A stretch of DNA of 64,000 bases, from positions 297,972,001 to 298,036,000 of the forward strand of contig OZ360220.1 of the NCBI GenBank assembly GCA_977017645.1, read 5' to 3'. This DNA comes from Torpedo marmorata. Lineage: Eukaryota. A program made the position numbers and the translations under genes. Of the stretch, positions 1 through 60,576 are shown piece by piece (within the stretch, counting starts at the first letter, position 1; each line of letters starts with the position of its first letter). The notes below the pieces were generated by a model. That model was not told the origin of the DNA, searched no databases, and was given only the letters and a program-made list of their open reading frames with translations.

Positions 1-518
1 GGTACCTGCATGGGTCCCAGCTATGCCTGCCTGTTTGTGGGCTTTGTGGAGCAATCCATGCTACAAGCCTACACAGGCAAGACCCCTCATCTCTTCCTCC
101 GTTATATCAACGACTACATCGGGGCTGCCTCATGCACCCGCGATGAGCTTGTCAACTTCATCCACTTCGCATCCAACTTCCACCACGATCTCAAACTCAC
201 CTGGTCCATCTCCGATAACACTCTCCCCTTCCTGGATCTCTCTGTCTCCATCTCAGGAGACAAGCTTTCCACCAACATATACTACAAACCATCCAACTCC
301 CACAACTACCTGGACTACACTTCCTCACACCCTGTCCCCTGCAAGGATTCCATCCCCTTCTCTCAATTTATCCGTCTCCGCCGCATCTGTTCCCAAGATA
401 AGGTCTTCCAGTCCAGATCTTCTGAAATGTCTGCCTTCGTCTACAAACATGGCTTCCCCTCCACCACCATCAACTCAGCCCTCACCTGCATCTCCTCCAT
501 TTCCCGCTCATCTGCCCT
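1..518 (+). mobile_element. Penelope-like retroelement (Neptune type), RT C-terminus/thumb; 5' part, interrupted by CR1
   Basis: ORF 10-534 has the PLE RT motifs MGPSYACLFVG, RYINDY (degenerate YIDD), LPFLDL and YYKPSNSHNYL...SIPFSQFIRLRRICS; the element resumes at ~1201. Confidence 0.9.
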
Positions 519-1195
519 ATATATAACCATATAACCATATAACTTTTACAGCACAGAAACAGGCCAGTTCGGCCCTTCGAGTCCATGCCGAACACATTCT
601 CCCACCTAGTCCCACTGACCCCGCACCCAGCCCATAACCCTCCACACCTCTCTCGTCCATATACCTATCCAACTTTTCCTTAAACATTAAAATTGAACCT
701 GCACAACTACTTCGGCCGGAAGCTCGTTCCACCCTCCTACCACCCTCTGAGTGAAGAAATTCCCCCTCATGTTTCCTCTAAACTTTTCCCCCTTCAATCT
801 CAATCCATGCCCTCTTGTTTGAATCTTCCCCTCTCTCAATGGAAAAAGCCTGTCTACATTGACTCTATCTTTCCCCTTCATAATTTTAAATACCTCTATC
901 AAATCACCCCTCAACCTTCTACGCTCCAGGGAATAAAGTCCCAGCCTGTTCAACCTTTCCCTATAACTCAAACCCAGAAACTCAGGCAACATTCTTGTAA
1001 ATCTCCTCTGCACTCTCTCTATTCTGTTTATATCCTTCCTGTAATTCGGTGACCAAAACTGCACACAATATTCCAAATTTGGCCTCACCAATGCCTTATA
1101 CAACTTCAACATGACATCCCAACTCCTATATTCAATACTCTGATTTATGAAGGCCAACATACCAAATGCCTTCTTCACCACCTTATCTACGTGTG
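519..1195 (-). mobile_element. CR1 (HER1-like) LINE 3' fragment inserted into the Penelope element
   Basis: ORF 687-1181 has LYKALVRPNLEYCVQFWSP...RLRGDLIEVFK...FFTQRVV, a typical CR1 ORF2 C-terminus; (ATAACCAT)n microsatellite tail at ~519-543. Confidence 0.92.
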
Positions 1196-1200
1196 GCCAT

Positions 1201-2133
1201 GGCCCCCTCTGCCCCCAGATGCAACAAACATAGAATCCCCCTCATCCTCACCTACCACCCCACCAGCCTCCGCATCCAACACTTTACCCGCCAGAATTTC
1301 CGGCACTTATTACAGGATCCCATCACCAGATACATTTTTCCTTCTCCTCCCCTCTCGGCCTTCCACAGGGACCGCTCCCTCTGCGATTCCCTCGTGCACT
1401 CATCCCTCCCCACTCATCGCACCCCCGGCACCTTCCCCTGTGCCCGCAGGAGGTGCAACACTTGCGCCCACACCTCCTCCCTCACCACGGTCCAGGGCCC
1501 CAAACAGGCCTTTCAAGTGAAGCAACACTTGTACTTCCAGAGGACTTATTTATTTCATCCGGTGCTCCCTTTGTGGCTTTCTCTACATCGGAGAGACCGG
1601 TCGCAGATTGGGAGATCGCTTCGCTCAGCACCTTCGCTCCATTCGCAACAACAGTGACCTCCCAGTGGCCAACCATTTCAATTCCGAGTCACACTCCCAT
1701 GCTCACATGTTTGTCCATGGCCTTATGTACTATCCCACACTGACCACCCGCAGATTGGAGGAACAACACCTTATTTTCTGTCTGGGCACTCTCCAGCCAG
1801 ATGGCATGAACATTGACTTTACTGCTTTCCACTAAACCTGCTAGCCTGCTCTTTCCCCTCCCCCCTGTCCTGTCTTTCCAGTTCTTCCACCCTGCCAGCC
1901 ATCCCTCCTCCCCCTCATTGCTGCTGTCCCCCTCCCTCCTTTCTCCACCTATCATCTCCTGCCTTTGCCACCCCTTCCCCCCCTCCCCAACTCTTTTGTT
2001 CGGACGCCTGCTGGCATTTTCTCATACTTTGATGAAGGGCTCAAGCCCGAAACGTCGGTTATGTATCTTTACCTTTGCTACATAAAAGACACTGTTTGAC
2101 CTGCTGAGCTTCTCCAGCAGTTTGTGTTTTTAC
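1201..2133 (+). mobile_element. Penelope-like element 3' part: Zn-finger linker, GIY-YIG endonuclease (frameshifted) and pseudo-LTR tail
   Basis: RIPLILTYHP, CxxxxCxxC linker, LIYFIRCSLC..YIGET.R.LGDRFAQH, EEQHLIF.LGTLQPDGMN; pyrimidine-rich tail that includes a hammerhead motif. Confidence 0.9.
2023..2063 (+). ncRNA. Minimal type I hammerhead ribozyme motif in the PLE tail
   Basis: CAUACU-UUGAUGA-A-GGGC UCAA GCCC-GAAA-CGUC-GGUUAUG: core with C3U, 4-bp stem II, stem I with one bulge, palindromic ACGU stem III; predicted cleavage after C2056. Confidence 0.75.
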
Positions 2134-3070: not shown

Positions 3071-4290
3071 TGATGACGATAATGCATTTATTGTCAGACA
3101 CATAATAAGTACGTATGCACTGATATTCTTACTTGCTGCAGCCAAACTGCAAGGGAGGTGGATATGACAAGGTCATGCTCCAAACATCTTCTTTAGAGGA
3201 GGGTTCTGTTGGAATTATCTTTCTTGGCAATCACACCTTTCCAGGAAATAGTGTCGTTTGCCACCATGCTGCTAAGTTCACACAGATGGATCCATTTGTC
3301 TTCTTTGGACAATGTTGTTCAAGGTCAGAAGGAAAGTCATCCTTGGCCTTCCAGGACTGAACCATGTTCGTTCCATGTTATAGTTATCGAGACGTTTACG
3401 AAATGTTCACATGCTGAAGAAAAATGGCTGAGACACTACACCAGCTCATTCTGGAAGGCAAAGCCTACCGCATGATTCTCTACTCTTTTGCTTTTAGTCG
3501 TAGCCACTGCCTTGCTCTTTGAGCTGGGTGTCTCCTGCTGATCATATTTCACTGTGGAATGAAGCATCAATGCCAAAGTGTCTCGGCCTATGATATCAGT
3601 TGAAAGCAGGTCTGTTGCTCTTGAGGCAATCTATAAAGGTCCTGAAACTCAAGGTTGCCAACTTCTTTTTGAGGAGTTGCCTTTTTATTGACTCTTTTTA
3701 ATGCAAACCAGCTACCACATAATCCTGTCAAACCAAGTGACAGGGGATCCAAGGCGACTGGAGAACAGGCTCTGCTGTGTGGGTATTAACATGCATCTAG
3801 AAGTGGACAAACGCACAGGTGCCTGTGGGCACATATGCACTCTATCACGTACACGTGGAAGGGGTCACACACAGATACTGCCTTTTCCCCCTTCCGCTAT
3901 CCTTCTGGCTCTTCTCACTTGTCTCTGTACTTTAAATGGCTCTTATCCCCAAACTCCTCCCACTTCCTCAGCCCTCCAACTCTTACTCCTTCCTCTTTGG
4001 TACCATACCTCTTATCTGCCTCTTCCTTCCCTGCACCAACTCCACTTCCTCCTCTCTTTCCTCTGGCCTCTGCTCTCCCCCCTCTGGGTGTAGGTGAAAA
4101 ATTCATACCTTGTAATAACTTTGTAATATTGGAAGTTTGTGCCCACCTGTCAGCTATAGCTTCTTACTGGAGTTGTGGAAGTTTGATAGATGGTCAAAAT
4201 GGATGAGAATCAAGATAAGAATATTTTCACACATTTAAAATCCACAGGATTGTCTCCTTGAAGACCCATGTGCAGTAGGGTGACAAACCT

Positions 4291-13471: not shown

Positions 13472-14783
13472 GAACATTAAAATGCACAACTTTGAATCCA
13501 TCTGCCTGTTTGGAAACATCAGAATCGAGGCGACTATATTGAACAGCCAAGGGCTGAAAAATCTCCTCAGAAAGACGAGAACTCCTTTTCCTCCATATAA
13601 TTATGGAGGTTGCAAGAAAGTTATGAGAGCATATGATTTGTGAGAATATATACCTAATTAGTGGACCATTAATTACAAGAACAAAACCATCCATTGGAGG
13701 ATTACACTCCCCTCTGCTGACTCCTTGAATATGTTTCTATTAGAATAATAAGAAAAATCATCTGTAGAACTGGGCTTTGAGGAAAGCTCTACAATAAAAC
13801 TAGGCTTCTCCGTTTCAACACCATGAATGAACTATTTATAGATACTGTGTCATGACCAGCAGAGATTTCTAAGTATCCCTAAAAAGGGAACTGACCAGAT
13901 AACTTGTGTGTGAGTCATCATCAAACTTGCAAGTGGAGATACTGTGCTAGTCCCGACAAATTCTATTTATACCCAGATGGTTAGGAGATCACGTAAAAAG
14001 AACAGACCAGAAATAGAGAACTGAGAAAATAAACCACCCCACATTTTCTAGACTGCACGTGATAGAAAAAGAAGCTGCAAAATTTAGCTAGCCAGTGGCT
14101 CAGTTAGAAGATAAGAAATAAAGGATAATAATGAAGGAAGCATGGCTCCAGTAAAATGTTGTTGCTGTCCTCCATTCCAGTGCTGAGTTGCTCATATGGA
14201 CCATAGTTTTGTAGGACTGGTCGAGAGCAAGTCTGGAGCAGAATTTCAGGCACTCCCAACTATGGGTAAGCAAATTAGAGAATTACCATACTTGTTCCAG
14301 GTAAGACATCACTCAAGGAACTCTTGGCCAGATTGTCTATTGTGTCAGATGCACACCCTTGGAGAATGGGCAAAATCAGATTTAATTTATTGAATGCTCA
14401 CCAAAATTATAAAATAAATAGATTGTGGTAAAATAAAGCTCTTTTAATAATAACCAATTTCAAGATTTGCAAAGTGCAGCTAATTATGAAAATTGGTCTT
14501 TCTTCTATGCACCTAATTATCCAAAGCAGTGGAACAGTTTCAATATAGCTATAGTAAGCGAGAATAGGCTTTGTCTATTATTGTGAACTTTAATTCAGTT
14601 ACTAAAGAATAAAATGTACATATGAATTGTAAAATTCTGAATTCCCACCATGTTGTCTGGAGCTACAAATGTGCTAAATGGGATGGACTCAGAACAGATC
14701 TGGCAGCTCAAAAACTGGCCATTCACAAGGCACTGTGGACCATCAAGGCAGCAGAAATTGACACTGGCGTAATCTTGTAATCA

Positions 14784-15373
14784 GAAGTAAAACACAAAAA
14801 TCTGTGGACACCGTGGTTGAAGTAAAAAACACAAATGCTGGAGAAACTCAGCAGGTCAAACAGTGTCTTTTATGTAGCAAAGGTAGAAATACATAACCGA
14901 CGTTTCGGGCTTGAGCCCTTCATCAAAGTATGAGAAAATGCCGGTAGGCGTCCGAACAAAAGAGTGAGGGGGGAAGGGGGATGGCAAAGGCAGGAGATGA
15001 TAGGTGGAGAAAGGAGGGAGGGGACAGCAGCAAAGAGGGGGAGGAGGGATGGCTAGGTAGCTGGAGAAAAACAGGAAGGACAGGTGAGGGGGGAGGGGAA
15101 GGGAACGACAAGCAGGTTTAGTGGAAAGCAGAAAAGTCAATGTTAATGCCATCTGGCTGGAGAGTGCTGAGACGGAATATGAGATGTTGTTCCTCCAATT
15201 TGAGGGTAGTCTGGGTGGGATAGTACATGAGGCCATGGACAGACATGTGAGTGTGGGAGTGTGACCCGGAATTGAAATGGTTGGCTACTGGGAGGTCGCT
15301 GTTGTTGCGGACGGAGAGGAGGTGCTCAGCAAAGCGGTCTCCCAATCTACGACCGGTCTCTCCAATGTAGAGA
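14784..15373 (-). mobile_element. Penelope-like element 3' fragment with intact hammerhead motif (14892-14932)
   Basis: LYIGETGRRLGDRFAEHL...EEQHLIFRLSTLQPDGIN; tail nearly identical to 1836-2133. Confidence 0.9.
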
Positions 15374-16479
15374 AAGGGATGTCTCAGCATATTTCTCACT
15401 CTACCATTACTCTCAAGCTCAGGAGTCAACCCTAGTTCAATGAGAAATGTCATGTGGGAAACAGAAAAAGGCATACCTAAAAATGATGTTCCAGCCTATT
15501 TAAGATGCAATCCAGGACTATTTGCTTGATGAACAAAAAGAAATCAGTGTGCAATAGATGGAGCTAGGTGATTTCACAAAAGATGAGTTCAAAGCTCTGC
15601 TATCCTACCATATCCAATCCTGTACAGTGGTGGCCAATTAATCAGCTAACCAGAAGAGGACACTCCAGGAAAATCCCCTTTCTCACTGATGGTGGGACCA
15701 GGCATGTGAGTGCTCAAGACAAGGCTAAAACATCCATACTCATGATCAGACACAAGGGCCAAATAGGTGATCCATCTTGGAGACACGAGAGATGGCAGAT
15801 GGTGGAATCTAGAGCAAACAAAAATACAAAACAGCTGGAGGAACTCAGCAGGTCAAGCAGCATCTGTGGAGGCAAAAGCATGGTTGAAGTTTTGCGTTGA
15901 GATCCTGCCTCAGGACATCTTGGCCTACTCCTGAATGACCCACAATCACAAAGGCAGGCTCCAGTTAATTTGGTTCACTCCGTGTGATATAGAGAAATGG
16001 CTGAGAGCACCAGATACAACAGAGATGATGAGACCAGACAATATTTGAACATCTGTTTTCAAGAACGACCCTCACCTTCCAGTACACTCACAACGTCATC
16101 TAACATTCACACTTTCACTGAAGCAGGAATCATTGGTAAATCTCAAGGGCACCGAAGTCCACTCATATCTTCTGAATGAAACCGATGTTAAATGTGGTTC
16201 AGAAGTTTTTTTTTGGGGGGGTGGGGAGATTCCAGGATGTTGACACCTTCAGCCTCAGAATCTAAAAGGTGAAAATGTCAAGATCTGAACACAAAATCAA
16301 AGTGCTGCATCGAGAAAATGTGTCTGCACTTTGACCTCCTTCATTGTTTGTAAAGTAGTGAAGGATGTTTTGCTGTGATGAATGGAAGCAAGTTCAATGT
16401 TTTTTTTCCTGAATTACTCCGTTCCTGCTGCTTTAAACTAGAATTGGTGCAGTCTTCAGATAAGATATCCAGATGAACC

Positions 16480-20712: not shown

Positions 20713-21749
20713 CTAGAGAAGGAAAATATTGCACCAATTCAGAAAATGTATGATTCTGCAGAATCAGACTAATTACAATATAAATGATCAATTCCAACTC
20801 TTCAATATTTAGATCATAAACATTGATCAAGTTGCACAATTTAACATTCCATTCTCAAACCACTGGAGTAAGAATAAACTAAATAAAGGAACCAGAAACC
20901 CTTAGTTCAACAAAACCCTTTGAACAAAAATCAAAAAAGAATCATGATTATTTTAATGAAATGATAAAAGGTTGCACGCATTTAGGTAGCATTTGTCTGT
21001 GATGAACTGCGCATATATTGGTGGCTCTGCCAACAGCAGGGTATGCTGACATTTCGGATTTCCTCACAAAGCTAAAACTTTAACCAAAAATGATGCTCCA
21101 AAAATATCATATTCACTAATATGAAAATAAGAAATTATATTTGATGTTTAAAAATGTTGCTTTGAAATTGGACTGCACCCATTTTTGGTGTTTCATTTTT
21201 GGTGTTTTTTGGTAATAATGCCCACTCAGTTTGCTCACAAAACAAATTGCAAGATTGGCCAAAATCAAATTTGAAATAGGATCAGCGATTACATCCAGAA
21301 TCAGGTGCCAATATGTGACCTGCGCTGTGAGTGACAGGGTCAGGGTCCAGTCAATGGAGCGGAAAACTCTCTGCTACATAACAATCAGCCCAGTAAGGCA
21401 CCATCTTTGTGGCAACCAAACAGCATCAACACACAAGATGTCTGCCATAGAGAAAATGTTTGCAAAGACGAAAGCTCCATAATTCTCTGAAAGGGGGACT
21501 GAAGAGCAGAGATAATCAGCAGGAGGGGCACCTTGTGCATCAGGGGAAGACAGGACACCCATTAGAACTCAGTAAGAGATGACTCAAGTCCACCCCAGCA
21601 GAGACTTAAGGTGCAGAGCAATGTCACCAGAAATGCCATAATCTTACAAGATTCGTCAGCGTGAGCGTCACAACACTGTAAACAGTGTTCACACAGATTT
21701 ATCCATACAAATGCACACCCACAAAATAAACACCCAAAGTGCTGCTTCA

Positions 21750-22080
21750 TACACCTGACACACACACACACACACATACCTCACACACACACACCCACCT
21801 CACACACACATACCTGACACACACACACACAAACCACACACACACATACCTCACACACACACACACACACCCACCAACCACACACACACATACCTCACAC
21901 ACACACACACACCCACAAACCACACACACACATACCTCACACACACACACACAAACCACACACACACATACCTCACACACACACACCCACCAACCACACA
22001 CACACATACCTCACACACACACACACACCCACAAACCACACACACACATACCTCACACACACACACACCCACCAACCACA
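21750..22080. repeat. Compound (CA)n microsatellite with higher-order unit (CATACCT..CA n..CCAC/AAACCA)
   Basis: Directly visible; abuts an assembly gap. Confidence 0.95.
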
Positions 22081-22362
22081 NNNNNNNNNNNNNNNNNNNN
22101 NNNNNNNNNNNNNNNNNNNNNNNNNNNNNNNNNNNNNNNNNNNNNNNNNNNNNNNNNNNNNNNNNNNNNNNNNNNNNNNNNNNNNNNNNNNNNNNNNNNN
22201 NNNNNNNNNNNNNNNNNNNNNNNNNNNNNNNNNNNNNNNNNNNNNNNNNNNNNNNNNNNNNNNNNNNNNNNNNNNNNNNNNNNNNNNNNNNNNNNNNNNN
22301 NNNNNNNNNNNNNNNNNNNNNNNNNNNNNNNNNNNNNNNNNNNNNNNNNNNNNNNNNNNNNN
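22081..22362. other. Assembly gap
   Basis: Run of N. Confidence 1.
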
Positions 22363-23331
22363 CTCAGTGCCTGTTGCATCTTCCCTTCAGGCTAAGGCAG
22401 CAAGAAATTTGAGGGGAGATACCAGCATGTAGAAGGTGGGGAGGGGGAGACATCTGAATCTTTATAGACAGAGGGGCTACAGAGATCCAAATCACCCAAG
22501 AGTAGAGAGTATAAGAAATATGCAGGAAAGTTCATTAATATTGTTTCATTATGATGACTACTACATTGCCTTTGATTCAATCTTCAGGAAGTCTCCTTAT
22601 TTACCATTTGGGCCATGCTGTCACAATAAAGATTTAGGACACAGTTCACAATCACTACTATTTTGTAAACAGTGTTTGGTCTTTACAGGGTGTTGAGAGG
22701 AGAAACACCAGAACACCGTCACTCAAGCAGAAGGAGAAGCTGGAGTGGGGATGGGGATGAGGGTGTAAGGATGATGAAGGTAAAAATGAATAATTTTGAG
22801 ATCCTGTAACATTACCTCCAAAGATGCACTTCCTGTGGTGAGCAGGAGATCAGAGTGATCCAGGAAAATACAGCAGGAACTATTGAGCTAGAGTCTTGGG
22901 TAGACATGCTTCCACACTGCTCTACAGGGCTCAGATGAGGGCCACGACTAGGAGTTGACATCTCCAGATCATACATTCAGATAATGAGCATGTTGTCCAA
23001 CCAGTCCGACTGAACGCAGAAGGTGACAAAGAGCATGAGGACTCCAAACTACATAGGAGATTGTGTGGGTTCTGGAGTCCTGGACACTTTGCCTCAGCAG
23101 TTTATTACAAAGGTGCAGTGATAATCCTGCCACACTACACCACCTGATGCAGGTAAACACCGATAGAGGCTACATCATCTCTCTCTGTTTGTGCAGTTTC
23201 AGCCTAATCTAACTTTGAAGCCCTAAAGACACAGCAATGTGGCAGTGGGGGACAGTTTGGCATTCTCGCAGAGCAGAAGTTCACCACATGAGCACATCAT
23301 TGTCCTCACTGAGTGGTGAGATGTCATTCTT

Positions 23332-26002: not shown

Positions 26003-26336
26003 CCTTCATCAAGGTATGGAAGAATGTCAGCAGGCGTCCAAACAAAAGGATGGGGGGGAAAGGGGGGGGGGGCAAAGGCAGGAGATGATAGGTGGAAAAG
26101 GGAGGGAGGAGACAGCAGCGATCAGGGGGAGTGGGTGGGTGGGTGGAAGGGGAAGGGAGGGGGGAGAACTGGAAAAACTGGAAAGGGGGAGGGGAAAAAA
26201 GGGCTCAAGCCCGAAACGTCGGTTATGTATTTTTACCTTTGCTACATAAAGGACACTGTTTGACCAGCTGAGTTTCTCCAGAATTTTGTGTTTTTACTTC
26301 AACCACGGTGTCTATAGATTTTCGTGATTTACTTCT
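26003..26336. mobile_element. Penelope pseudo-LTR fragment with internal inversion breaking at the hammerhead
   Basis: 26003-26200 is the minus-strand upstream tail ending ..CATACCTTGATGAAGG; 26201-26336 is plus strand starting GGGCTCAAGCCCGAAACGTC. Confidence 0.8.
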
Positions 26337-35162: not shown

Positions 35163-36192
35163 CAGGTAGTCCTCGACTTACGACCGTAATTGCGACCGAA
35201 GGCGTGGTCGTAAGTCGGATTGGTCGAAAGTCAGATTCATCCTGCCGCGCATATCTGCTACTACCCCCACTACCATCAACATTATTTCCAGTTTAAAGCC
35301 TTGATTCCAGCTCTAGTTGTATTTACTTGGGTTCTGGTCCTAGCTAATTCAAGGGAAACCCATCCTTATGGAACAGCTCACCCATCCGAGCTCCTGACGC
35401 CCAGACCGCCTGCCCATCCGAGCTCCCGACGCACCAGCCACCCGCTCATCGGGGTTCCAGATGCCCTGACCCCCCACCCATGCGAGCTCCCGACGCCCAG
35501 ACCGCCTGCCCACCAGAGCTCCTGACGCACCAGCCACCCGCTCATCGGAGCTCCAGATGCCCTGACCGTCCACCCATGCGAGCTCCCGATGCCTCGGCCA
35601 CCCGCCCACCAGAGCTCCCGACGCCCCCGACTGCGGATCCTTGCCTGGGCCGCCCGTCCATCCGAGCTCCCGACGCCTCAGCCACCCGCCCACCGGAGCT
35701 CCCGATGCCCCGACCGCGGATTCTTGCCTGGGCCGCCCGTCCATCCGAGCTTCCCGACGCCCCCCGACCGCGGATCCTTGCCTGGGCCGCCCGTCCATCC
35801 GAGCTTCCCGACACGCCGAACATGTCTTCATTACCCATAATCCCCCACGCAGCTGGAACCGCTCAGCGTTTCCCTGGCGCTGGCAGAGCGGTTCCAGCTG
35901 CGTGGGGGATTATGGGTAACAAAGATGGCCATTGATCCCGCATTGAGCTGCCACTCCTGCCTGACGCCCGACTCCAATGACTACTTCTAACGAGTTTAAA
36001 CATGCTGCTGAGCAGTGTTAAGCTGTCAGCATTCAGCGTCGTCGCACACTTTATTATGCGATTTTTATGAACTTCAAGTAAATACTGTAATAAAGTATCT
36101 CAACATATATACAGTACTTTAATACAAAAAAAATCTTTGTCGTATGTGCAAGTGGACTTAACTCGCGTAGGTCGTAAGTTGAGGACTACCTG
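35163..36192. mobile_element. Non-autonomous Tc1/mariner-pogo (Tigger-like) DNA transposon with GC-rich minisatellite
   Basis: TIR CAGGTAGTCCTC(G/A)ACTTACGACC, TA TSD on both sides; tandem array at ~35380-35815. Confidence 0.88.
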
Positions 36193-39537: not shown

Positions 39538-39739
39538 TAAAGGTAAAGGTTCCATTATTGTCACGTAATACTACATTTTGAATGTAACATACATGAAATT
39601 CTTTAACTTTGTCTCCCGTAAGGAAGACAGAGAGTCGCTACTTTGTCCAGTGCCCCTCACAGAAATGAGGCCCCAGCAAGGAACGAACTCGCAACCCCTG
39701 GTTTACAAGACCAGGGCTCTAACCACTGAGCTATGAGCT
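39538..39739 (-). mobile_element. SINE with near-intact tRNA-Thr(TGT) head and Rex1-like tail
   Basis: The head 39739-39668 is tRNA-like; the body ends GTGACAATAATGGAACCTTTACCTTTA; the body recurs at 60886-61018. Confidence 0.75.
39668..39739 (-). pseudogene. tRNA-Thr(TGT)-derived sequence (SINE head)
   Basis: AGCTCATAGCTCAGTGGTTAGAGCCCTGGTCT-TGT-AAACCAGGGGTTGCGAGTTCGTTCCTTGCTGGGGCCT; intact D and anticodon arms, damaged acceptor stem and T-loop. Confidence 0.8.
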
Positions 39740-39983
39740 GTGTGTGAAAAATGTACCCATCACAGCCCTTTTAACCCTACTCCCTCTCACCTTTAACCTG
39801 TGCTCTGTAGTTTGAGACCCTTATCACAGGAAACAGATACTGGCTATCTACCCGATCTATGCCCCTCATAATTTTATACACCTCTATCATATCACCTTTC
39901 AGCCTCCTTCGATCCAGGGCAAACAAACCTAACCTGTCCAATCTCTAACTCAAGCCCTCCAATCCAGGCAACACCCTTGCAAA

Positions 39984-40192
39984 AGTAAATCACAAAAATC
40001 TGTAGACACCGTGGTTGAAGTAAAAAAACACAAAATGCTGGAAAAGTTCAGCAGGTCAAACAGTGTCCTTTATGTAGCAAAGGTAGAAATACAACCAACG
40101 TTTCGGGCCTGAGCCCTTCGGCTTTGCTACCTTTGCTACATAAAGGACACTGTTTGACCTGCTGAACTTTTCCAGCATTTTGTGTTTTTTAC
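39984..40192. mobile_element. PLE-derived fold-back mini-element with partial hammerhead in the loop
   Basis: Inverted arms ~40020-40086 and 40127-40192; candidate TSD ACCCT(T/C)GCAAA at 39973-39983 and 40196-40206. Confidence 0.8.
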
Positions 40193-48308: not shown

Positions 48309-48829
48309 ATATCATATCCGATCAATATTAATGAGTGCCACTGTGTCCCTTGGAGGAGTGGGAACTGGTAGCATGCAGTGGTGGATTAACCATTAGGCTG
48401 AGTAGGCTGAAACCTAAGGGCCCGGAAGGTAAGGGGGCCCAAGCCGACGCATTATGGTCTGATTAAACTGACTTAACAAAAACAATGAGGTTCATTATTC
48501 TCCTTCATCCTTTGTGTTTGTTTGATCTCATTAAAAATTGCAGGTAGCCTCCCAGCAGATGAAAAGTTCTGGGTGAGTGAGTCAGCCGGGCAATTCTTTT
48601 CTGTTGTGCTAACGAAATCATCGAGGCGTCGAAACTATTTATAAAGTAGCAGAAATGGACCACATTGCTGCAGGTTGGAGAAGAGCGCGCATATATATAC
48701 AGGAGCATGGAGCGCCGTAGCCACAGCGCTGCAGGAACCCGGTGGGACATTTGCGGCCCTTCCTCCCCGCGTCTGCACCCGGGGCCGCGGTGGGTTTCCG
48801 CGGTTGCCCACCCGACCTGAGCGGCACGG

Positions 48830-49321
48830 CAACCTCTCCCTGCCCAGCAGGACGGGGGCTGGGGACCTCTCCCTGCCCAGCGGGACGGGCCGGCGACCTC
48901 TCCCTGCCCAGCGGGACAGGGCCGGGGGACGGCGACCTTTCCCTGCCCAGCGGGACGGGGGACGGGACCGGGCGACCTTTCCCAGCCCAGCGGGACGGGG
49001 ATGGCGACCTCTCCCTGCCCAGCGGGACAGGGCCGGGGGACGGCGACCTTTCCCTGCCCAGCGGGACGGGGGACGGGACCGGGCGACCTTTCCCTGCCCA
49101 GCGGGACGGGGATGGGGGACGGTGACCTCTCCCTGCCCAGCGGGACGGGGGGTCAGGCCCGACGACCTTTCCCTGCCCAGCGGGACGGGGGACGGCTACC
49201 TCTCCCTGCCCAGCGGGACGGGGGACGTCAACCTCTCCCTGCCCAGTGGGACGGGGGATGGCTATCTCTCCCTGCCCAGCGGGACGGGGGACGGCGACCT
49301 CTCCCTGCCCAGCGGGACGGG
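48830..49321. repeat. GC-rich minisatellite (~33-bp unit GACCTCTCCCTGCCCAGCGGGACGGGGGACGGC)
   Basis: Directly visible tandem array; explains the overlapping repetitive ORFs. Confidence 0.95.
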
Positions 49322-49682
49322 CCCACCGTTTTAACATTTCGTTGAAATTGGCAGGGTCAGCAAAAAAAGGTTGTACATTAAATTAATTGTTGGATTTATA
49401 TATTAAACTAAATCACTGATTTCTCTTCAAATAATACAACCAAAGGTGATAGCGATTGTTTGAACTTTAATATGTCTATGTTTTTAAGCATCGTTGTGCT
49501 GTTAATTTGCATAATCAAGTTTTATTAATAAATGAAAGCCTAATTCGTTCCTTCGCTGCAGGGATATTTAGTCGGTTATTATTCGTGCGACAGCTGTAGA
49601 AAACGTGTAATGTATAAATGGTTTTGAATGAAATCTCAGCAAAACAAAAGGGAGAAGCCGAACTCGCGTTTGTAAATTGAGT

Positions 49683-49862
49683 TGGAAAATCACAATGCTA
49701 GAGGATCTCAGCAGGTCTCGCAGCATCCGTTGGAGGTAAAGATGTATTACCGACGTTTCGGGCCTGAGCCCGTTTTTAAGGTATCTTTACCTCCTGTGGA
49801 CGCTACGAGACCGGCTGGGTTCCTCCAGCATTTCTGTGTTTTACCACAGTCACAGTGTCGGA
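49683..49862. mobile_element. PLE-derived fold-back mini-element with degenerate hammerhead (49745-49784, minus)
   Basis: Arms AATGCT.GAGG..CTCAGCAGGTCTCGCAGCATCC..GGAGGTAAAGAT / ATCTTTACCTCC..GGACGCTACGAGACC.GCTG.GTTCCTCCAGCATT; loop has GGGCTCAGGCCCGAAACGTC. Confidence 0.75.
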
Positions 49863-60084: not shown

Positions 60085-60576
60085 CTTTATTTTTTTTTAG
60101 ACATATAGCACAGTAATAGGCCATTTCGGTCCACGGGTCCGTGCCGCCCAATTTACACCCAATTAACCTACACCCCCGGTACATTTTGAACGGTGGGAGG
60201 AAACCGGAGCCCCCTGGGAAAACCCACGCAGACACGGGGAGAGCGTACAAACTCCTTACAGACAGCGGTAAAACACGAAAATCTGTTGACACCGTGGTTG
60301 AAGTAAAAACCACAAATGCTGGAGAAACTCAGCAGGTCAAACAGTGTCTTTTATGTAGCAAAGGTAAAAATACATAACCGACGTTTTGGGCTTGAGCCCT
60401 TCATCAAAGTATGAGAGTTGGCGCCTCCATACCAGACAGTGATGCAACCAGCCAGAATGCTCTCCACGGTACACCTGTAGAAGTTTTCGAGAGTCTTCGG
60501 TGACATACCGAATCTCCTCAGATACCTCACAAAGTATAGCCGCTGGTGAGTCTTCTTCGTGATTGCATCAATGTCA
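60085..60576 (-). mobile_element. Contiguous V-SINE 3' part (60085-60268), PLE tail with hammerhead (60269-60415) and Rex1 fragment (60416-60576)
   Basis: Each piece matches other copies in this window; all are minus strand; the hammerhead copy has G12 mutated. Confidence 0.8.

Follow-up and report, generated by a model that had tools for sequence, protein, structure and literature searches.

This locus raises the question of whether a hammerhead motif with U in place of C at position 3 of its core, opposite G8, a U3-G8 combination that strongly slows minimal hammerheads, is a working ribozyme or the remnant of one. In the 64-kb stretch of DNA analysed here (the window), the 41-nt motif is intact in two places, at 2023-2063 on the plus strand and at 14892-14932 on the minus strand, and both copies read CAUACU-U3-UGAUGA-A-GGGC UCAA GCCC-GAAA-CGUC-GGUUAUG, with a stem III that consists of the ACGU palindrome only, as the original prediction had read directly from the letters. 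The window holds 2 matches to the 23-nt core pattern, and 100 shuffles gave 0. All positions of the minimal hammerhead core of Penelope-like elements (PLEs), CUGANGA-H...GAAA-N-palindrome-N-U-H, fit the motif except C3, which is U here, and a published member of the class departs from the core in the same way. The Rfam search that had been proposed as a check gave 12 matches at E ≤ 10, none of them to a hammerhead family. The identification of the motif as the minimal hammerhead of a PLE pseudo-LTR (pLTR) is supported and, as the rest of its core stayed conserved, this wobble-core motif probably acts as a slow ribozyme and is not just a fossil.

Table 1. Features of the Penelope element at the start of the window, of its hammerhead, and of the other copies in the window.
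Feature	Position	Strand	Remarks
RT-domain part of Penelope-like element	1..518	+	open frame; extends upstream beyond the window
LINE 3' fragment inserted in the element, breaking the copy	521..1195	-	element positions 3199 and 3195 flank the gap
Cys-rich linker (CX3CX2C) and GIY-YIG endonuclease	1196..1835	+	frameshift near 1530
Pyrimidine-rich 3' UTR / pseudo-LTR 5' of the hammerhead	1836..2022	+	
Initiator-like TCATACT	2022..2028	+	A2024 is the likely RNA start; overlaps the 5' strand of stem I
Minimal type I hammerhead	2023..2063	+	
Stem I	2023-2028 paired with 2057-2063		U2059 bulged
Core strand	2029-2035		U3 = 2029; U4-A9 = 2030-2035; extra A = 2036
Stem II	2037-2048		
GAAA	2049-2052		
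ACGU	2052-2055		
C17	2056		predicted cut 2056/2057 (GUC/G)
Tail 3' of the hammerhead	2064..2131	+	start of the next unit
Second Penelope copy, 5'-truncated	14777..15376	-	endonuclease end, pLTR, intact hammerhead 14892-14932, long tail
Strongly decayed older relative with C3	15820..15917	-	
Rearranged pair	26003..26336		minus piece 26003-26131 ends in the core; plus piece 26199-26336 starts at A9
Head-to-head stub pair	39983..40192		minus copy (motif 40092-40119) starts at G8; plus copy starts past the motif
Older M2 subfamily stub and inverted partner	49683..49842		motif 49745-49784 (-) with core mutated to UUAAAAAC
Short stub	60268..60416	-	begins 9 nt ahead of position 3; motif 60373-60413 with G12A

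All of the partial or mutated copies that had been noted at 26003/26201, 40092-40119, 49745-49784 and 60373-60413 are present (Table 1). The pair at 26003-26336 has no intact core, since 26003-26045 (-) holds the 5' half only and the piece from 26199 onward lacks the 5' core. The further claim that every readable core has U3 holds for both intact copies; a qualification is the strongly decayed relative near 15,917 (-), which has C3. A host gene, whose motifs suggest that it is ZNF608-like, lies on the minus strand with its stop codon at ~20,265 (-); a Pfam search of this gene returned no match. Both intact hammerhead copies lie past this stop, by 5 and 18 kb, and are thus outside the coding exons, beyond them, whereas the four minus-strand copies inside the gene are all truncated or core-mutated, none with an intact core, which makes intronic cleavage unlikely. 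The proposal that copies in a ZNF608 intron are transcribed in the ribozyme sense therefore does not hold in the form given. Other features of the window are a tRNA-like sequence at 39672-39737 (-), which scored 44.3 bits, above the Rfam gathering score, was not called by ARAGORN and is likely the head of a tRNA-derived SINE; a near-perfect 89-nt palindrome at 35831-35919, which ends a tandem-repeat tract and gave weak matches to miRNA models; and long tandem-repeat tracts at 48505-49382, 35348-35935 and 21730-22432 in the region of the ZNF608-like gene, which yield spurious open frames.

We characterized the carrier element by scoring 150 of 102,685 first-look protein-search candidates and fetching the 19 loci with the longest open frames, together with the flank of the window. 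All hammerheads found at these 20 loci, 19 of which were thus chosen by frame length, have U3. The element at 1-518 is 95.9% identical to unit L088; this unit and L075 are tandem units of 3.9-4.0 kb with the U3 motif at both ends, that is, in both pLTRs. The hammerhead is located 3' of the GIY-YIG stop codon, in the pLTR, and the ATG of the ORF lies ~180 nt past position 3 in tandem copies. [quoted passage not shown] The GIY-YIG domain of the window copy scored above the Pfam cutoff (E = 2.9 × 10−5), and the 1138-aa open frame of L079 gave matches just under the Pfam cutoffs for both RVT_1 (E = 2 × 10−6) and GIY-YIG (E = 5 × 10−4). The LINE 3' end at 521-1195 (-), which from its features is presumably CR1-like, overlaps an RT-like frame (687-1241, -), has a short tandem tail and is inserted at the RT/linker border of the Penelope copy. 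Between RT and endonuclease lies a Cys Zn-finger-like linker of the Neptune type, CARRRCNTC; as a Cys linker is a definition common to Neptune and Nematis (PMC8557442), the carrier appears to be a Neptune-like Penelope, placed by a linker that fits Neptune or Nematis alike. A non-LTR retrozyme (short noncoding tandem repeats with a hammerhead in each unit) was rejected as the carrier because the copies in the window are scattered ends of a unit that is 3.9-4.0 kb long and coding.

Several arrangements recur among the copies of this family. Head-to-head short pairs are common (L008/L009, L291, L301, L303, L306 and others) and are often joined via microhomology from the hammerhead stems, and L078 and L081 are long fold-back (inverted) pairs, near full-length, with the U3 motif in each copy. 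At G000:C2:260820650, L258:4158 and L292, deletions between the stem I strands remove most or all of the core, as would be expected if the reverse transcriptase skips a folded hairpin. The match lists also hold tandem arrays of pLTR pieces with periods of ~75, 455 and 46 nt (G000:C2:245852958-245853141, G000:C31:169865716-169866658 and G000:C1:5814638-5814711), possibly retrozyme-like units.

Genome-wide, we identified 63,716 exact matches to the 27-nt core, of which 62,851 have U3 (~99%) and 257 have C3 (0.4%), the latter being fewer than A and G together at position 3 (≤608). In a random sample of 140 stretches of 10 kb (1.4 Mb), the 86 usable copies had U in 71 cases, C in 11, A in 3 and G in 1. 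The consensus of the family across the genome thus has U3 and a conserved core, and U3 occurs in copies with whole RT-endonuclease frames, in agreement with the original prediction that U3 is a family trait and not decay. The carrier family is young and very abundant (>60,000 exact copies), and older C3 families account for 3,459 and 101 matches to two looser patterns. We rejected a hidden C3 master of the U3 family, given the rarity of C3 and given that many of the 30 C3 copies fetched out of 257 are junctions, single reversions or members of older families. In RNA contigs from organisms A-D, the 40 of 97 difference rows listed include T>C at 2028 and 2033 and none at 2029, and a second alignment listed no differences; at most, this hints that related species also have U3.

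To compare the core with its surroundings, we collected 275 copies, 250 of them with a placeable core, and sorted the U3 copies into 8 subfamilies, each with 6-82 members. Across these 8 U3 subfamilies, a majority change is seen once at the 10 canonical core sites, compared to 8.9 expected from the spacer rate (P ≤ 0.0014), a rate that is inflated by the definition of the subfamilies on the spacer; the inner tree branches sum by hand to ~0.8 changes per site, which gives a similar expectation. The sole core majority change, G12A, is at a CpG site and occurs in 4/7 M1 copies. N7 changes at least 3 times, including to A and G, and the subfamily majorities at position 17 are only C or U, both of which are permitted by the NUH rule (PMC3884650). 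In 26 representative copies, 87.6% of stem cells are paired, and 15 cells are changed on both sides, a count that 0/500 shuffles reached; the number of distinct pairs changed on both sides is 4, which 161/500 shuffles reached, and the shuffles ignore relatedness. Stem II is 98% paired, and stem I, which is 81% paired with 3 pairs altered on both sides, covaries across the subfamilies; stem III has no loop. Taken together, these comparisons are evidence that the U3 hammerhead core remained under constraint across the eight subfamilies. Coding constraint on the core, with N7 as the third codon position in one frame, was rejected because that frame ends inside the tail, the M and Y groups differ by a 7-nt indel in the spacer, and the ORF starts well downstream. 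Later changes that weaken the fold further, turning pairs into wobbles, are C2.1U in Y1 and Y2 and C11.1U in 13/15 Y1b copies. The very young Y1b copies (L074, L078, L079, L080, L082, L086, L089), with N7=A and a G10.1-U11.1 wobble, are frequent among copies with whole RT-endonuclease frames, and have a further weakened motif in what is possibly the most recent lineage.

If the hammerhead cuts its RNA, some insertions might begin at the cut site. We scored 5' ends in 107 copies, with RT-selected loci and C3-selected centres excluded. Ends at -9 to +9 of position 3 were found in 23/107 copies, compared to 24 in the 91 nt at offsets 10-100 (p = 6 × 10−7), and ends at offsets 22-30 around the cut in 3/107. 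Four of the 107 copies start on the A in TCATACT, which resembles an Initiator (consensus YYANWYY); this motif is found in 72/82 Y1a, 3/12 M2 and 1/6 M3 copies. A purine before the A at -5 occurs in 827 genome-wide matches, with junctions in 4/6 of those checked, and a purine before the cut site in 289/65,584, compared to 208 for the preceding position and 348 for the following one. Ends at the front edge of the motif are thus far more frequent than ends at the cut site, so that most templates are likely uncut and start at this front edge; cleavage was rejected as the chief source of 5' ends.

A weaker signal is seen at the cut site itself. Among copies with a purine before G1.1, 11/20 are junctions (7 without partner microhomology), compared to 0/7 and 0/7 at the two neighbouring positions (0/14 together; Fisher p = 0.0007 and 0.026). 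A search for copies with a break anywhere from offset 24 to offset 31 yielded 642 matches; of the 100 listed, 97 were tallied by hand, 3 with small indels being dropped. Among the matches listed, starts at offsets 24-31 numbered 12, 14, 7, 2, 26, 5, 15 and 16, the cut being at offset 28, where the spike of 26/97 differs from a uniform distribution (p = 1 × 10−4), as does the 19/72 that is left among the matches listed without 25 self-derived or tandem rows (p = 0.001). The spike is not robust: offsets 27, 28 and 29 taken together show no enrichment (p = 0.79), offset 28 compared to the second highest offset yields p = 0.08, and unevenness is also seen among the remaining offsets (p = 0.007). 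The junction sample and the offset tally overlap on contig C1, and GG microhomology could be the source of the spike. These ends are suggestive only of a cleavage footprint and, if real, cut-site starts make up ~0.3-0.5% of copies.

It is possible, if rather unlikely, that the U insertion put an end to catalysis and that the motif has since been retained for its use as an internal promoter, composed of an Initiator and a downstream element, and/or as a rod hairpin to which the protein of the element binds. The predicted fold of the monomer is consistent with this, as the rod (-11.8 kcal/mol) lies 4.1 kcal/mol below the open hammerhead (-7.7 kcal/mol) in nearest-neighbour energies, which exclude tertiary contacts. 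Stem II and its loop are, moreover, fixed to about the same degree as the catalytic bases, so that the whole block may be kept for another role, and 5' ends occur at the Initiator-like site. Among known elements, Penelope of Drosophila contains an internal promoter that includes a DPE (PMC2377424), hammerhead mutants of the Anolis element PAc insert normally in vitro (PMC11167929), and Naiads spread without canonical hammerheads (PMC8557442). Conversely, the pattern of constraint speaks against a dead motif: N7 is free to vary, including to the A and G that break a rod pair, whereas A9, G12, A13 and A14, which are unpaired in the rod, stay unchanged. The same holds for a position 17 that follows the NUH rule, for double changes in stem I that keep the hammerhead register, and for the weak end spike at the cut site.

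Cleavage of a free RNA dimer, in which two copies within one transcript would pair via ACGU, cleave and release unit-length or circular RNA, appears quite improbable. The ACGU palindrome is invariant in all 8 subfamily majorities, there are tandem units whose two motifs lie 3.9-4.0 kb from each other, and dimeric Schistosoma mansoni motifs cleave weakly in vitro (PMC4209133). However, the predicted energy of the double hammerhead (-13.7 kcal/mol) compares poorly to those of two monomer rods (-23.6 kcal/mol) and the best cofold (-31.0 kcal/mol), at most ~0.5% of copies begin at the cut site, and the 3' motif is kept in every long copy and the 5' motif in most short copies. The same energies lend no support to the dimer-dependent ribozyme of the original prediction.

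The origin of U3 was traced in a tree of the endonuclease end and UTR, with the core excluded, for which 32/136 candidates qualified. A single clade (support 95/96), separate from the U3 copies, unites five old C3 copies, and three further C3 copies, which came from C3-selected searches, are nested among young U3 copies. Copy divergence is 0.11-0.12 in the C3 groups and falls to 0.014 in the youngest of the U3 groups, which suggests that C3 is older than U3; the direction of change and the root of the tree are set by this divergence, without an outgroup. The C3 group O1 reads AC/C-UGA in 10/20 copies, and the U3 groups read ACC/U-UGA or ACU/U-UGA; the 3' strand GGUUA is common to O1 and the U3 groups, and the predicted fold of several O1 copies pairs C3 with this strand. 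On the simplest reading, U3 likely arose by the insertion of one U after the old C3. The 3' strand of stem I would have become GGUUA in the older C3 family, drawing C3 into pairing with G1.1, and the inserted U would then have restored the seven-base core strand, with the old C3 as position 2.1 and the new U as position 3. The insertion would thereby have replaced a slipped pairing by a regular stem I, at the cost of the U3-G8 wobble. It is highly improbable that the old C3 has instead kept its pairing with G8, with the inserted U bulged out and a core of CU(U)GANGA: U3 does appear to come from an insertion after C3, and saltern hammerheads with insertions beside C3 have low activity (PMC3088659), but the old C has G1.1 as its partner within the covarying stem I and is U in the dominant young Y1 and Y2 (74/82 Y1a).

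On balance we moderately favour the reading that the U3-G8 pLTR hammerhead has remained a self-cleaving RNA, slow and probably assisted by protein, with most templates uncut. Transcription would begin at stem I, on its front edge, the RNA would rest in the inactive rod, and the protein of the element would reverse-transcribe from the tail to the RNA 5' end, a small fraction of the RNA having been cut at GUC/G beforehand. The full chain of events, in which a one-base insertion re-registered a slipping hammerhead whose U3-G8 was kept in eight subfamilies and which, overlapping the start, cuts few RNAs in vivo and leaves a fossil spike of ends, is doubtful as a whole.

Comparison to known systems shows where the family differs from them. 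The minimal hammerhead class of PLEs and a compensated U3-A8 variant have been described (PMC4209133), and the PLE-associated Saccoglossus kowalevskii(1) row in Fig. S3 of that study, UUGAAGAA, has U3 with G8. Like those hammerheads, the window motif is placed in the pLTR and has an extra base between A9 and G10.1, G10.1-C11.1, a palindromic C15.2-G16.2 and an NUH site; the layout of the Acropora Neptune row is nearly identical to it (PMC4209133). Unlike in the main text of that study, which presents U3-A8 only, U3-G8 is fixed here in >60,000 copies of a dominant young family, which, unlike the cases there, has an apparently traceable origin of U3 and eight subfamilies. In PAc, a Poseidon element of Anolis (Frangieh et al. 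2024), the hammerhead is protein-assisted, uncut RNA is the main substrate, no RNA-seq ends were reported at the cut site, and both DNA strands are extended (PMC11167929). The present family resembles PAc in its pLTR hammerhead, tail ends and probably mostly uncut templates, and differs in having U3 and an ATG ~180 nt downstream, whereas PAc has C3-G8 and an ORF that starts inside the motif (PMC11167929), and in a Cys linker that points to Neptune/Nematis. Natural core variants with rare changes and low but real activity are known (Perreault et al. 2011, PMC3088659; Naghdi et al. 2020, PMC7151607), among them a halophile variant, U2a G2b U3 U4 G5 A6 C7 G8 A9, with U3 and G8 (PMC7151607; see PMC3088659). 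These are single prokaryotic or viral motifs with a full stem III, unlike the high-copy animal retrotransposon considered here. Related literature includes PMC6765202, PMC7229834 and bioRxiv 2026.07.22.740005.

Both the motif class and the U3-G8 state are thus already in print. Lunse et al. 2017 reportedly described dimer-cleaving small hammerhead variants of PLEs, which share the diminished stem III and the PLE association; those alignments aside, our literature search turned up no account of a family with fixed U3-G8, nor of how it originated. Added here are the likely origin by insertion, evidence for continued constraint and a weak putative cut-site footprint, and the gain, given the precedents, is a testable case and not a new system. 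The role of PLE hammerheads has been called unclear, and PAc inserts without cleavage in vitro (PMC11167929). The present family is a natural experiment, in which a core pair held to be essential was weakened and yet the lineage became dominant (>60,000 exact copies). C3 relatives persist in the same genome, which enables side-by-side comparison, and the ends of insertions offer a genomic read-out of template cutting. If the full chain of events set out above is true, the genome would record the ratio of cut to uncut RNA of a PLE ribozyme.
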